Below are positions 10,795 to 17,104 of a stretch of DNA of 64,000 nt, piece by piece (the first letter of the stretch is position 1; every line of letters begins with the position of its first letter). Origin of the DNA: Candidatus Omnitrophota bacterium (GTDB lineage Bacteria > Omnitrophota > Gorgyraeia > Zapsychrales > Fredricksoniimonadaceae); NCBI GenBank assembly GCA_903944345.1, contig CAJARJ010000015.1:6433-70432 (forward strand), in the 5' to 3' direction. The notes beneath the pieces were generated by a model that saw nothing but the letters and a program-made list of their open reading frames with translations, had not been told where the DNA came from and made no database searches. The translations under genes were made by a program, and so were the position numbers.

Positions 10795-10803
10795 CGGTGA
10801 AAG

Positions 10804-10877
<74 letters not shown>

Positions 10878-10883
10878 ATGTCT

Positions 10884-11384
10884 TTACTGACCCGACGTTT
10901 TCCCGGTCTTCGTTTTTACTGCCGTCGTGGTCGCTGTTGTCTTCTTTTTTGCTACTGGCGTCGTTTTCTTTTTATCGGACGACGCTTTTTTCTTGCTCTG
11001 GGACGACTCTGTTTTTTTCGTTGCCGTCTTTGAAGATGTTATCTTACTCGTTTCTGCGGCAGAAGGCAATGATTTTTTATCTTCTGCTGTTTTTTCTTCT
11101 ACCGACACCGACGGTTTTTGCCCCTGCGGCAGAATTTTGTAAATAACTTCGTCTTCCTTGATAATACCGAATTTTTCTCGCCCTACCCGCGCCAGATACT
11201 CGGGATCCTGCTCCAGACGGCGTCTTTCTTCCTGCAACACATTATTTTCTGCCGACAGCTCGCGAATCTTGTGATCATACGAACTGTTGCGCTGATGCAG
11301 CTCCTGCATCTGCAAATACGACGGCATAAAAAAAACAAAGATCGCAGTGCATATGCCGAAGATATAAAGGGCGTTGCGTATCAC
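10884..11384 (-). CDS. ftsB: FtsB/DivIC-like septum formation initiator with a long K/T/S-rich low-complexity C-terminal tail
   Basis: N-terminal TM segment, then a coiled coil 'RELSAENNVLQEERRRLEQDPEYLARVGREKFG' typical of FtsB. Conserved position immediately downstream of eno. Confidence 0.65.
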   Translation of the reverse strand: MIRNALYIFGICTAIFVFFMPSYLQMQELHQRNSSYDHKIRELSAENNVLQEERRRLEQDPEYLARVGREKFGIIKEDEVIYKILPQGQKPSVSVEEKTAEDKKSLPSAAETSKITSSKTATKKTESSQSKKKASSDKKKTTPVAKKKTTATTTAVKTKTGKTSGQ

Positions 11385-11408: not shown

Positions 11409-12701
<1,293 letters not shown>

Positions 12702-13015
12702 TCAGAACTGTATAAAAAGATATTCGTATGACCCAAACCACTGCGGTTGAGTCCGAACTTGCAAAATCGAATCTGGAATGAAAACAGTCCGGGTAGATTA
12801 ACATCCGCCCAGTTGTCCGTCAAATAAAATTTCCAGATACCGCCTGCCCGTAGCCTCTACGGGCGAAGAGACCTTTTTTGAAAGCATGTTTGTTTGACGT
12901 ATACCTTTGTGTATGTTATTCTTACGCTAACATTTTACGCCGGTCTCAGCCGCTGGTACAGAATTCTGACCCTGTAACAGCCCGAATTAATATTAACTTT
13001 TTTCCGAGGACCTTT

Positions 13016-15499
13016 ATGCCAAAAATCAAGTTTCTCACATGGCTGCAACTTAACTGGGTCAAACTTCTTCTTATAGCTTTGGCTGCGTCTTTTGTGATCA
13101 CGGTCGTGACCATGCTCGTTTTTGGCTTCAGCAGCTTTGCCTCGCTGGAATCCTTCAGCCGCAAACAGATGATGGCCCAGATGGGGATGTACCTTTTTAT
13201 GGGCATTGTGCAAGGCGTCATTTTTACCTCGATGTACGGCGTCATGTACTACTTCATGTTCATGGGTGGCGGCATGGCCAAATTTCTGGGCAGCGATTCT
13301 GCCACGCATACCAAAGCCAACGTTAAGTGGGACGAAGTCATCGGCATGGAACAGGCCAAAAAAGAGGCCTGGGAAATTGTGCAATTCCTCAAAGATCGCA
13401 AACTGCTGAAGGTTATTGGCGGCAACATCATCAAAGGAGCACTGCTGGTCGGCGGCCCCGGCTGCGGTAAAACTTACCTGGCCAAAGCCATCGCCACTGA
13501 GGCAGGCCTGCCTTTTATTTCCGCTGTCGGCAGCGAGTTTGTAGCCATGTTTGTTGGACTCGGAGCCGCCCGCATGAAATCCCTGTTCAAAGAAGCCCGC
13601 AAAATGGCCAAACTGGAAGGCGGCTGTATCATTTTCATTGACGAGATCGACTCTTTTGCCCGTCCGCGCACCGGCGAATCACCCGGCAACATAGGAGCAC
13701 AGAACGATCACAACGCCACCATCAACCAGTTTCTGACCGAACTCGACGGACTGCGCCAGACAGAAAACAACATTGTCGTTATCGCCGCCACCAACGTCCC
13801 CGAAGAAGAACTGGATCCGGCCATCATGCGCTCGGGCCGCTTTGACCGCAAAATCGAAATCAACAAGCCGACAGCCCATGACCGGGAAGCCCTGCTGCGC
13901 TTCTACCTCAAGAAGATTTCCTCCGACCCCGAGATTAATATCACCGATACCGCCGACCGGATGAAATGGTTCTCGCCGGCTGACGTTAACAACATGGTGC
14001 GGGAAGCGGCCATTATCGCCATGCGCGAGTCCCGGCAGCACGCCAACCAGCAGGACATCAACAAAGCACTTGAACGCGTCATGCATTCCCTCGAAAAAAC
14101 CGGCGGCGACAAAATCCTTTCCTCCCGCATCAACGTGAAGTGGACTGAAGTTATCGGCATGGAAAGCGCCAAAAAAGAAGCCTGGGAAATCGTGGAACTG
14201 CTCAAGGATCGCAGTCTTGTGCAGGCTATCGGCGGAAAAATCGTCAAAGGTATCCTTCTGCTGGGGCCGCCGGGCTGCGGCAAGACCCATCTGGCCAAAG
14301 CCATGGCCACCGAAGCCGGCTACCCGTTTATATCGGTCAGCGGCAGCGAGTTTATTGAAATGTTTGTCGGTGTCGGCCCCAAACGCGTCCGTTCGCTCTT
14401 TAAGGAAGCGCGCGCGTTAGCCAAGGTCGAAGGCGGCTGCATTATTTTTGTAGACGAAATCGACTCCTTTGCCTCGCCGCGCGGCATCGAAATGGGCGGT
14501 GGCGGGATGACCGAACACAATAACACCATCAACCAGTTTCTCACAGAGATGGATGGCCTGCGCCACAACGAAAACAATATTGTTATTCTTGCCGCCACCA
14601 ATGTTGCCGAAAACCAGCTGGATCAGGCTCTTCTGCGGGCCGGACGGTTTGAGCGCAAGATTTATGTGACCCGGCCAAACCTTAATGAACGGCGCGACCT
14701 CTTTGATTTCTATCTCAAAAAAGTCCAGACTGCCGAGGACGTCAAATCTGACATGCTGGCCCGCAAAACACTGTGGTTTTCCCCGGCCGATATCGATAAC
14801 ATGATCCGTGAAGCCGGACTGATTGCCCTGCGCGAGAAACGTGATCGCATCAACTTCAAAGACTTGTCCAAAGCCTACGACCGCATTCTTTACGGCGAAA
14901 AATCCAACACTATTCTCAGCCAGCACGAAAAAGAATGGGTCTCCTATCACGAGGCCGGGCACGCTATTATCGGCTATCTGCTGCATCCGACCAACGACGT
15001 CATTAAAGCCACCATCATTCCGCACAAGGGTGCGCTGGGATTTGTGGCTCCCCGACCGAAAGAAGAAGTCAATATCCGCAGCAAGGAATGGTATCTGGCA
15101 GAAATCAAGGTTTCGGTTGCCAGCTACGCAGCGGAAAAAATCAAGTTCGGCACTACCGGCAGCGGTGTTTCAGCGGATTTCCAGAGCGCCTTGTCCACGG
15201 CCCGCCAGATGGTCTGGAACTGGGGCATGGGACGTTCCGGCCTGCTGGGAGACCTGTCCATGACCGGGCACCCGCACCAGTCCCTGATCTCGGAACGAAC
15301 CAAAGAAAAGCTCGATGACGACGTTCAGGAGATACTCACCTCCTGTCTCAAGGAAGTGACTGAAATTCTTTCGCGCAGAACCGACCTGCTGGATACTTTT
15401 GCGCAGGAACTGCAGGCCAAAGGAGAGTTGGAATACGACGAAATCCAGGCGATCTTTGACCGTTTTGGCCTTAAACCCGAAACCCGGTTACTCGCATGA
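13016..15499 (+). CDS. FtsH-like membrane AAA+ zinc metalloprotease with two tandem AAA+ modules and one C-terminal M41 peptidase domain
   Basis: Two complete AAA modules: 'VGGPGCGKTYLAKA...IIFIDEIDS...ATNVPEEELDPAIMRSGRFDRKI' and 'LGPPGCGKTHLAKA...IIFVDEIDS...ATNVAENQLDQALLRAGRFERKI'. The protease motif 'HEAGHAI' follows. Two N-terminal TM helices with only a short periplasmic loop. Start chosen at the ATG at 13016, which has a GAGGA Shine-Dalgarno 8 nt upstream, rather than the ORF-track ATG at 12878. Confidence 0.8.
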   Translation: MPKIKFLTWLQLNWVKLLLIALAASFVITVVTMLVFGFSSFASLESFSRKQMMAQMGMYLFMGIVQGVIFTSMYGVMYYFMFMGGGMAKFLGSDSATHTKANVKWDEVIGMEQAKKEAWEIVQFLKDRKLLKVIGGNIIKGALLVGGPGCGKTYLAKAIATEAGLPFISAVGSEFVAMFVGLGAARMKSLFKEARKMAKLEGGCIIFIDEIDSFARPRTGESPGNIGAQNDHNATINQFLTELDGLRQTENNIVVIAATNVPEEELDPAIMRSGRFDRKIEINKPTAHDREALLRFYLKKISSDPEINITDTADRMKWFSPADVNNMVREAAIIAMRESRQHANQQDINKALERVMHSLEKTGGDKILSSRINVKWTEVIGMESAKKEAWEIVELLKDRSLVQAIGGKIVKGILLLGPPGCGKTHLAKAMATEAGYPFISVSGSEFIEMFVGVGPKRVRSLFKEARALAKVEGGCIIFVDEIDSFASPRGIEMGGGGMTEHNNTINQFLTEMDGLRHNENNIVILAATNVAENQLDQALLRAGRFERKIYVTRPNLNERRDLFDFYLKKVQTAEDVKSDMLARKTLWFSPADIDNMIREAGLIALREKRDRINFKDLSKAYDRILYGEKSNTILSQHEKEWVSYHEAGHAIIGYLLHPTNDVIKATIIPHKGALGFVAPRPKEEVNIRSKEWYLAEIKVSVASYAAEKIKFGTTGSGVSADFQSALSTARQMVWNWGMGRSGLLGDLSMTGHPHQSLISERTKEKLDDDVQEILTSCLKEVTEILSRRTDLLDTFAQELQAKGELEYDEIQAIFDRFGLKPETRLLA

Positions 15500-16515
15500 T
15501 CCGTACTCTTTGCGGTCTGTTTATTCTTATTTTTCTGAGCAGTGGCTGCGGCCTGCTGAAGGACAAAACCTACACACTCTCCCAGGCCGAGGAGAAACTG
15601 GTCGAATTCTGTGCCCGGGAGGGAGAAACTGCAATTGCAACCCGCCGGCAGGGACGCACCCAATGGATATACCTTCCCATGGAAGATCCGCTTTTTGACT
15701 TCAAACTGTCCCCCGGCCACGGGCATACCAAAAAGAAAATACCCCCCCTCATGCTGCTGTCGCTTGAGGGTCAATATACGGAAGGAACCTTTTCCTTTGA
15801 TTACGACACCATCACCGATGTTATCCCGCCGGATCCAACTGACTACGGCTCGGCCTACACTGAAACCTATATCAAAAAACGTCAACTCATTTACCAGGCC
15901 CTGCAGGAAACCTTCTTCAACCTTGACGACGACGAAGAAACCCGCGACTCCGCGCCCCTCTTTTTTGTCATCGTAATCGCCGACACCTCCAAAGGGCTGG
16001 CCACCAGAAGCACGGTCTACTTTTCCGACATACGCGGGTATCTGACAGCCGCAATACCACCCGATGAATATTATCTGCGGGAACGCATTGAAATCATTGG
16101 CGACGAAGAAATGATCGGGAATACGACCGGGGAAGGACTTGAATTCAATGATGTTGCCTGGCCGGAATTTCTGGCCGAACAAATCAAGTTCCGCGCCCGC
16201 TTCAAATTTACCCAGAGCGACTTTCCTCCCGAATCCGACCCGGGACAAACTATCGCCGGCATCGCGGTGAACACTCTGCGTTTCTACCCTTTCAAGGAAT
16301 ATGACCGCATCGTGACAACTGATATACGGGCAAAAAACAGCAAGACCTATACAAAAGAGGACTTTGTTCTGCTGGAAGAAAAACCTCTTTGGGAAAAAAA
16401 CGCCTCAAGAATGCACGTTATCCGCTTCTCTCCGACGACAATGGGCATTGATACCAACTTGACTTCCGACAAGGAAGAAGATTCGCAGAACCACAGCGGA
16501 CTCAGCTGGGAATAA
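15496..16515 (+). CDS. Lipoprotein of unknown function, translationally coupled (ATGA overlap) to the tandem-AAA FtsH-like gene
   Basis: Signal peptide plus lipobox 'FLSSGC'. No recognised domain. Confidence 0.6.
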   Translation: MIRTLCGLFILIFLSSGCGLLKDKTYTLSQAEEKLVEFCAREGETAIATRRQGRTQWIYLPMEDPLFDFKLSPGHGHTKKKIPPLMLLSLEGQYTEGTFSFDYDTITDVIPPDPTDYGSAYTETYIKKRQLIYQALQETFFNLDDDEETRDSAPLFFVIVIADTSKGLATRSTVYFSDIRGYLTAAIPPDEYYLRERIEIIGDEEMIGNTTGEGLEFNDVAWPEFLAEQIKFRARFKFTQSDFPPESDPGQTIAGIAVNTLRFYPFKEYDRIVTTDIRAKNSKTYTKEDFVLLEEKPLWEKNASRMHVIRFSPTTMGIDTNLTSDKEEDSQNHSGLSWE

Positions 16516-17104
16516 CTGTCCGCCCGCAAATTTTCAGCCGTCCGCTTACAAACATTTCGACCGCCTGAGGATACAGCCGGTGCTCCGCGCGATGAATCCG
16601 GGCAGCCAGAGTTTCGCGAGTGTCTTGCGCAAGAATCCGTACGGGCGCCTGGGCAATGATCGGGCCGTGATCAATCTGTTCATCCACAAAATGCACTGTC
16701 ACTCCGGTAACCCGGACTCCGTAAGCCAGCGCGTCCTCGATAGCGTGCCCCCCCTTGAAAGCCGGCAGCAACGAAGGATGAATATTCATGATCCGTCCGC
16801 GAAAAGCGTCAATAAACAACGGTGACAAAATTCTCATGTACCCGGCCAGAACCACCAGGTCAATCTGTTCGCGCTGCAAAAGCTCGACGCAGGCCTGGTC
16901 ATAAGCTTCCCGGGAAGGAAAATCGCGCGGAACCAGAGAGACAATTGACGGCACTTTAGCCCGGCGCGCACGCGTCAGCGCATAGGCTGCGGGCCGATCC
17001 GAAAAGACCAGCTTCAAATCTGCCGCAATCTTTCCTTTCCGGCAGGAATTGATAATAGCCTGCAGATTGGATCCATTTCCGGAAGCAAAGACCGCCAAAT
17101 TCAT
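16502..17104 (-). CDS. purN: Phosphoribosylglycinamide formyltransferase
   Basis: 'MNLAVFASGNGSNLQAII...' and 'HPSLLPAFKG' are PurN signatures. Confidence 0.9.
   Translation of the reverse strand: MNLAVFASGNGSNLQAIINSCRKGKIAADLKLVFSDRPAAYALTRARRAKVPSIVSLVPRDFPSREAYDQACVELLQREQIDLVVLAGYMRILSPLFIDAFRGRIMNIHPSLLPAFKGGHAIEDALAYGVRVTGVTVHFVDEQIDHGPIIAQAPVRILAQDTRETLAARIHRAEHRLYPQAVEMFVSGRLKICGRTVIPS

Follow-up and report, generated by a model that had tools for sequence, protein, structure and literature searches.

The protease gene and its lipoprotein neighbour

The DNA examined here, termed the window, is a stretch of 64,000 nucleotides (nt) from a Candidatus Omnitrophota bacterium (GCA_903944345.1, contig CAJARJ010000015.1, positions 6,433-70,432 of the forward strand). 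On its plus strand lies a gene for an FtsH-like protease (13016..15499, +), which is followed directly by a gene for a putative lipoprotein. The protease lies in a long plus-strand open reading frame (ORF) that spans 12878-15499, and its homologs all start at the ATG at 13016, which is preceded by a Shine-Dalgarno-like GAGGA. From this ATG to the TGA stop codon (15497-15499) the gene encodes 827 amino acids (aa), and Pfam, NCBIfam and motif evidence divides the product into a transmembrane (TM) hairpin, two AAA modules and an M41 protease domain. A sequence-only reading of this DNA had claimed two complete tandem AAA modules ahead of a single M41 domain, and this was borne out by Pfam, which found AAA twice, AAA_lid_3 twice and Peptidase_M41 once. 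The NCBIfam model TIGR01241 (FtsH_fam) scored 745.7 bits against a cutoff of 600, summed over two stretches of the protein, and PRK10733 scored 504 against a cutoff of 1008. By sequence and fold the protein is placed as a relative of FtsH, and no second FtsH gene was found in the window by tblastn. It departs from two textbook features of FtsH, namely the one AAA module per chain and the periplasmic domain.

The anchor consists of two TM helices with a very short external loop (13055..13261, +). Hydropathy peaks were found at aa 10-45 and 52-80, and an AlphaFold2 (AF2) model has helices at aa 14-42 and 48-82. The external loop had been described as short, which is correct; the length of ~25 aa given for it is not, as the loop comes to ~5-15 aa (~10-15 aa by hydropathy, while AF2 breaks the helices only at residues 43-47). 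FtsH_ext (PF06480) had no match among the 25 best of 36 Pfam families, and the loop is too short for a domain. AAA module 1 (aa 102-358; 13319..14089, +) and AAA module 2 (aa 373-627; 14132..14896, +) are both supported by Pfam, motifs, alignment and the ratio of nonsynonymous to synonymous substitution rates (dN/dS). Between them lies a linker (aa 359-372; 14090..14131, +) that is flexible in the model, with a predicted local distance difference test score (pLDDT) below 50 at residues 363-371. The Peptidase M41 domain follows at aa 633-813 (14912..15454, +; PF01434, E = 3.9e-36).

Each module carries a full set of motifs, with 271 aa from one Walker A to the other. In module 1 these are Walker A GGPGCGKT (aa 146), Walker B IIFIDEIDS (aa 205), pore loop 1 AMFVGLG and the second region of homology (SRH), TN...RSGRFDR. 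The corresponding residues are K152, F179 of the MFVG pore loop, D209/E210, sensor-1 N260 and the Arg fingers R272/R275. Module 2 has Walker A GPPGCGKT (aa 417), Walker B IIFVDEIDS (aa 476), pore loop 1 EMFVGVG and TN...RAGRFER, with K423, F450 of its MFVG pore loop, D480/E481, sensor-1 N529 and the Arg fingers R541/R544. The Walker B sequences, the SRH with Arg fingers in both modules and two intact pore loops had all been predicted or proposed for checking, and all are present; the Walker A GPGCGKT claimed for each module fits module 1 and not module 2. The zinc motif HEAGH is located at aa 645 (nt 14948-14962), and D721 is the candidate for the third zinc ligand.

The two modules are closest to each other (60% protein identity, blastp E = 1e-120) and then to FtsH; the proposed alignment of the modules with each other and with canonical FtsH gave 41-45% identity for the latter comparison. 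At the DNA level they are ~72% identical over 540 nt. This bears on whether the second module could be an assembly artefact produced by expansion of a tandem repeat, which is formally possible for any tandem repeat in a metagenome and was named as a way in which the sequence-only reading could fail. No support for an artefact was found, and copies with ~72% DNA identity are beyond confusion by an assembler. At least 12 contigs (clusters P0002 and P0003) carry the 827-aa protein at 100% identity and 19 further contigs carry 99% identical versions, the sources being NCBI, JGI, ENA and Logan assemblies. The same layout is found in orthologs at 59-86% identity, and the modules show position-specific orthology across species. 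Because the modules have diverged in DNA and the gene recurs in many independent assemblies, an artefact is considered next to impossible.

The lipoprotein gene (15496..16515, +) encodes 339 aa and overlaps the protease stop codon in an ATGA, which confirms the translational coupling noticed earlier. Its N-terminus, MIRTLCGLFILIFLSSG-C18, has the form of a signal peptide with a lipobox (LSSGC) whose cysteine, Cys18, is encoded at 15547-15549. No Pfam or NCBIfam family matched this ORF. An enolase gene (11409-12677, -) diverges from the pair on one side and a purN-like gene (16502-17104, -) converges on it from the other, so the protease and lipoprotein genes form a two-gene unit.

Constraint on the modules, the Omnitrophota clade and module history

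Conservation was assessed in an alignment of 43 two-module orthologs. In module 1, K152, E210, N260, R272 and R275 are invariant in 43/43, as are K423, E481, N529, R541 and R544 in module 2; D209 and D480 each fall in an invariant alignment column. The module 2 pore-loop position (450) is Phe, Tyr or Trp in all 43, and H645, E646, H649 and D721 of the protease are invariant in 43/43. dN/dS was calculated by the Nei-Gojobori method against the five closest species, giving values of 0.035-0.079 for module 1, 0.054-0.135 for module 2 and 0.037-0.081 for M41, which are rough as synonymous sites are near saturation. Both modules are maintained by strong purifying selection. A pseudo-ATPase module, which had been raised as a second way in which the sequence-only reading could fail, was rejected for the window protein and the two-module orthologs on the basis of invariant catalytic residues and low dN/dS (0.03-0.14 in both modules). 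Both AAA copies are predicted to remain catalytically competent, with the same moderate confidence as the overall explanation given below.

Among the 120 best homolog clusters, the depositor label is Candidatus Omnitrophota or Omnitrophica, with one Elusimicrobia, and all of them have 2-4 Walker A sites save one N-terminally truncated fragment. Their length classes of ~830, 1100 and 1370 aa correspond to two, three and four Walker A/B pairs, each with one HEXXH. A species scan was also performed, using one genome per species and the peptides CGKTYLAK and FIDEID[SA]F, and the best 80 loci of 522 confirmed stretches were examined. Nearly all of these loci are labelled Omnitrophota. Labels such as 'uncultured Planctomycetales', 'Methanosarcinales archaeon' and 'Candidatus Elulimicrobium' (a Patescibacteria-group name) were found at L010, L013, L015, L022, L040, L067 and others. 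Since sequences and gene order at these loci match the Omnitrophota clade, the labels are probably coarse or the contigs mis-binned.

The census of AAA modules in the 80 loci gave one module in 49, two in 19, three in 10, four in one and six in one. Single-module orthologs are ~550-560 aa long and have the same hairpin anchor. Four-module proteins were found in six clusters as well as at locus L026 and at L003, a locus from an NCBI assembly. The six-module ortholog (L037:2319-8030, +; JAJDCB010000001.1) is 1903 aa long and is followed by a lipoprotein gene; each of its six modules retains intact Walker A and B motifs, and six AAA and one M41 are found by Pfam. This count is a single observation on an 18.8-kb contig. 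The 79% identity between modules 3 and 4 of this protein points to a recent additional step in its expansion. The two-, three- and four-module examples have a common synteny, with enolase and DivIC upstream and, downstream, a lipoprotein and then a convergent purN; the protein directly downstream is ~300-360 aa long and without a Pfam family. At L001 and L002, enolase and the protease gene are separated by four extra genes, one of them with DUF4900. At one syntenic locus, the number of AAA modules in the orthologs varies between one, two, three, four and six.

Two variants of this architecture were recognized. In a three-module subgroup (P0061, P0064-P0071; L029, L030, L032, L034, L060) the middle module is degenerate and ~33% identical to its neighbours, while the modules on either side of it and the zinc site, HEAGH or HEAAH, are intact. 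An apparent loss of the zinc motif in some three-module proteins was rejected, as HEAAH is present and had been missed by a strict HE.GH pattern. The second variant has the order AAA-M41-AAA-M41 in ~1010-1020 aa, with two HEXGH motifs and ~10 residues between the first M41 and the second AAA (L004:6001-9066, +; P0074, P0091, P0096, P0097, P0103, P0114, P0116). In one example the lipoprotein and purN genes are again the neighbours, but enolase and DivIC are missing upstream. By sequence and gene order, the protein belongs to a distinct FtsH clade confined to Candidatus Omnitrophota, which is marked by the hairpin anchor, the lack of FtsH_ext and the conserved downstream lipoprotein.

The history of the modules was examined with a neighbour-joining tree of 138 Omnitrophota modules against three canonical FtsH sequences (E. 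coli, 2DHR and 7ZBH), with 100 bootstraps. Omnitrophota modules are monophyletic with respect to the canonical sequences in 100/100 bootstraps, and their identity to these is 41-45%. Within the clade, modules resemble those at the same position in other proteins. First modules pair with first modules (67% for 2.1 against 3.1 and 59% for 2.1 against 4.1, where the first digit gives the number of modules and the second the position). Last modules pair with last modules (66% for 2.2 against 3.3 and 64% for 2.2 against 4.4), and the middle module of three-module proteins is 63% identical to the third of four-module proteins. Modules inside one protein are 51-61% identical. In the tree, internal modules join first modules and 30 single-module proteins fall beside last modules, with support of 25-68%; the modules of the window protein fall in the 'first' and 'last' clades, respectively. 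These relationships suggest an old duplication inside the Omnitrophota FtsH clade, followed by insertions on the membrane-proximal side. By sequence, the modules are placed as products of duplication within the FtsH lineage, with no descent from Cdc48. The sequence-only reading had offered either an internal duplication or a distinct FtsH-related family, and the two hold together: the duplication lies within an FtsH clade confined to Omnitrophota.

The lipoprotein was followed across the same loci. In 78 of the 80 species loci the protease gene is followed immediately, on the same strand, by a family member, and the other two end at a contig edge. The lipoprotein homologs, Omnitrophota 'hypothetical proteins' in 37 clusters, have no Pfam domain save one likely spurious match. 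Those beside two-module, three-module, four-module and AAA-M41-AAA-M41 proteases are 24-35% identical and have the motif RFKFTQSDFPP in common. In the alignment of the family, G17 and C18 hardly vary, and a lipobox-like motif was present in 75 of 104 matched stretches of family ORFs, the starts of which are uncertain. Since single-module loci also have a lipoprotein, it is a partner of the whole clade and not of the duplication. The survey of orthologs that had been proposed therefore recovered both the architecture and the coupled lipoprotein, while the tie between lipoprotein and duplication did not hold. In basal single-module lineages the partner is 630-696 aa long and combines the lipoprotein domain (~aa 10-290) with C-terminal tetratricopeptide repeats (TPR) (L006:7505-9553, L069, L074, L078, L080). 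The AF2 model of the lipoprotein has a pLDDT of 83 and a predicted template modelling score (pTM) of 0.76, and Foldseek with this model found no like fold in the PDB. Judged from gene order, the lipoprotein probably acts together with the protease on the outer side of the inner membrane, where this FtsH lacks a domain of its own, and the new family is a candidate FtsH partner.

Predicted assembly and comparison with known systems

An AF2 monomer model of the protease was built on the 43-sequence alignment. It has a mean pLDDT of 77.5 and a pTM of 0.53; the domains are confident and the linker at 363-371 is flexible. In Foldseek searches the protomer matched the D1-D2 pairs of p97, Cdc48 and NVL with template modelling (TM) scores of 0.72-0.76 (on the target) over 545-580 columns, at a root-mean-square deviation of 5-6 Å. 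With D1-D2 of VAT, an archaeal double-ring unfoldase, aa 103-613 align in a single unbroken stretch of the same length. AAA-2 together with M41 matched FtsH 3kds with a TM score of 0.87 and human AFG3L2 6nyy with 0.82. By sequence, aa 366-820 (AAA-2 and M41) align end to end with solved FtsH at E values of ~1e-93 to 1e-95, and the best solved relatives are FtsH 7zbh, 2dhr and 2ce7.

With moderate confidence, the protein is read as a tandem-duplicated FtsH of Omnitrophota with two competent modules, likely a hexamer of stacked rings over one protease chamber. The stacked arrangement is proposed because of the p97-like superposition of D1-D2, the FtsH-like match of AAA-2 with M41 and the spacing of the modules. 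A double-ring, p97-like membrane protease had already been suggested from the sequence; its duplicated modules are confirmed, and its stacking now has the monomer model and the module spacing as its grounds. In such an assembly, six chains would come together through the M41 ring, as in FtsH, and each AAA module would contribute one ring to a stack of two, D1 facing the membrane and D2 sitting against the protease, an arrangement like that of D1 and D2 in p97, Cdc48 and VAT. Aromatic pore loops of both rings would grip the substrate and thread it into the single M41 chamber. The lipoprotein probably acts on the outer face of the inner membrane and would be a partner or regulator that replaces the missing periplasmic domain. 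Extra rings in ClpA or p97 offer a comparison for added grip and processivity. In its one-ring form FtsH has been called a weak unfoldase (PMC9601784; PMC9851988), and one or more extra rings could add grip and processivity to such an enzyme.

Several points weigh against this assembly and the history behind it. The pTM is only 0.53, and AF2 may reproduce a p97-like geometry that it has learned. The role of the lipoprotein is read solely from gene order. The tree is coherent, but bootstrap values for the order of duplications are weak (9-59%), and therefore no firm order, nor any secondary losses, were read from the tree. Furthermore, the module counts of one, two, three and six all divide six, a striking coincidence, and would also fit a single ring of six modules lying side by side, in which module number sets the oligomeric state. 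That alternative is judged quite improbable. Under it, rings would be built from six chains of one module, three of two, two of three or one of six, a dynein- or midasin-like scheme to which little credence is given, and complexes would contain fewer M41 domains, a consequence as improbable as the scheme itself. The AAA-M41-AAA-M41 variant lends it something, as it shows that whole units can fuse in one chain. However, the four-module proteins of six clusters, L026 and L003 do not fit, four being no divisor of six. Only three, two or one M41 domains would be left, breaking the six-fold protease chamber of FtsH. Moreover, the modules are spaced as in stacked D1-D2 ATPases, and the protomer predicted by AF2 resembles that of p97.

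The remaining objections concern the work done by each ring. The pore-loop position of module 1 is Phe in 35/43 orthologs, the window protein included, and Ile in the other 8/43. In the three-module subgroup the middle module is dead, with SN in place of Walker B and with neither Arg finger nor pore-loop aromatic. Because of these two features, not every ring would need to translocate. They also favour an alternative in which AAA-2 is the only translocation motor, and AAA-1 is an ATP-binding ring for assembly, spacing or substrate recruitment. The Ile of D1 contrasts with a D2 position that is always aromatic, and the subgroup evidently tolerates a fully degenerate module. In addition, single-module orthologs share slightly more identity with last modules (60-61%) than with first modules (58-59%). 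On the other hand, AAA-1 retains the Walker A Lys, Walker B Glu, sensor-1 Asn and both Arg fingers in every ortholog aligned, F179 is present in the window protein, and dN/dS of AAA-1 is as low as or below that of AAA-2. With a complete catalytic set and very low dN/dS, the constraint on AAA-1 exceeds what a passive spacer needs. An AAA-2-only motor is therefore regarded as unlikely, if still credible. The same standing is given to the related idea that AAA-1 resembles p97 D1 or NSF D2, setting the distance between membrane and motor or gating access without pulling.

The stacked-ring reading can be compared with several known systems. Canonical FtsH (E. coli; T. thermophilus 2DHR; T. maritima 2CE7/3KDS; TIGR01241; MEROPS M41) has the same N-in/C-in two-helix anchor, a classic-clade AAA with SRH and MFVG pore loop, and a C-terminal M41 with HEXXH and Asp, and its structures are the best sequence and fold matches of aa 366-820. 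Unlike canonical FtsH, the window protein has two AAA modules per chain (one to six in orthologs) instead of one, and a loop of ~5-15 aa in place of FtsH_ext. Its modules are 41-45% identical to those of canonical FtsH, its Walker A contains Cys (GPPGCGKT), its inter-subunit signalling motif is DGL rather than DGF, and a dedicated downstream lipoprotein is conserved beside it. Cdc48/p97/VAT-type unfoldases can feed the 20S proteasome. With these the protein has in common two tandem classic AAA modules, the same spacing and the predicted protomer geometry. It differs in its identity of ~30%, in having a TM hairpin instead of the N-terminal double-psi barrel adaptor domain, and in being anchored in the membrane with the protease fused in the chain rather than held in a separate 20S particle. 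It could thus be seen as a fused, membrane-bound counterpart of the Cdc48/VAT-proteasome pairing.

Two stacked ATPase rings also feed one chamber in ClpA-ClpP and ClpC-ClpP, where the second ring adds unfolding power and grip. ClpA and ClpC differ in that they belong to the HCLR clade, are soluble, work with a separate serine protease and have rings of different origin. As for partners, HflK/HflC and LapB (YciM), the latter a TPR protein, are membrane-associated controllers of FtsH in E. coli. C-terminal TPR, which recall FtsH adaptors of the TPR type, are also found in the partner from basal Omnitrophota lineages, yet this partner has no sequence or fold similarity to HflK/HflC or LapB. Unlike HflK/HflC and LapB, the Omnitrophota partner is a lipoprotein whose predicted fold has no match in the PDB, and its partnership is inferred from gene order.

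To our knowledge, FtsH is the sole membrane-anchored AAA+ protease of bacteria and organelles. No description of a tandem-AAA FtsH architecture was found in the literature searched; the reviews searched all give FtsH a single AAA ring, and two large studies of Omnitrophota genomes make no mention of FtsH or AAA. The labels 'AAA family ATPase' and 'cell division protease FtsH' hide the tandem architecture. According to a 2025 review (PMC12067869), proteases of the FtsH type have one AAA+ domain. For the phylum, of which only one cultured member is named in the literature searched, very long proteins (10,000-147,000 aa) that are mostly anchored in the inner membrane have been reported (bioRxiv 10.64898/2026.06.07.730766). 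A link between the module series and these giant membrane-anchored proteins is speculative. A broader scheme, in which one to six rings are stacked per chamber and each lineage tunes the number of tiers to its load, possibly the extraction and processive degradation of giant membrane proteins, is rather doubtful. Engineered mutants of ClpA, ClpB or p97 are the usual means of asking what extra rings give in terms of grip, processivity and unfolding force. Orthologs with one, two, three, four and six modules are a ready-made experiment on this question, and the natural one-to-six series, of which the window protein is one member, deserves structural and biochemical work.

Proteins outside the clade and the surroundings of the gene pair

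An exhaustive phmmer search covered 1.84 billion cluster representatives, and of the 150 best matches listed, 43 have two or more AAA modules ahead of HEXXH. Tandem-AAA FtsH proteins were also found outside the clade, at 31-41% identity (P0163, P0191, P0173, P0179, P0160, P0161; L007:6001-8556). Some carry canonical FtsH_ext, for example P0163 with three AAA and P0191 with two. The architecture therefore occurs in lineages outside the Omnitrophota clade as well, at least some of them with the canonical periplasmic domain. Another protein, P0174, adjoins three TLC ATP/ADP translocase genes, and these neighbours suggest that its host is an intracellular bacterium. A further group consists of metagenomic proteins with five tandem classic AAA and no M41 (P0172, 2124 aa; P0205, 2055 aa; P0184, 1398 aa; P0263, 1631 aa). 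One of the four has an N-terminal FHA domain, and their kinship to the window gene is by AAA fold only.

A sigma-70-like promoter candidate (TTGACG-17-TATTCT; 12894..12922, +) lies in the 338-bp gap between the divergent enolase gene and the protease gene. It has 9/12 matches and is weak, as such sites are no more numerous than in shuffled sequences. Upstream, on the opposite strand, the window contains tRNA-Met (10803-10877, -), a DivIC/FtsB-like gene (10884-11384, -) and then the enolase gene. The DivIC/FtsB-like product is a coiled coil with a long tail rich in Lys, Thr and Ser. GC skew is negative in all 2-kb bins of the window (1-64000), and 17 of the 18 ORFs longer than 350 aa are on the minus strand, the protease gene being one of the few long plus-strand genes. 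As the skew is uniformly negative and the long ORFs lie mostly on the minus strand, these data suggest that the window is located on one replichore, with the protease operon running against the main gene direction.

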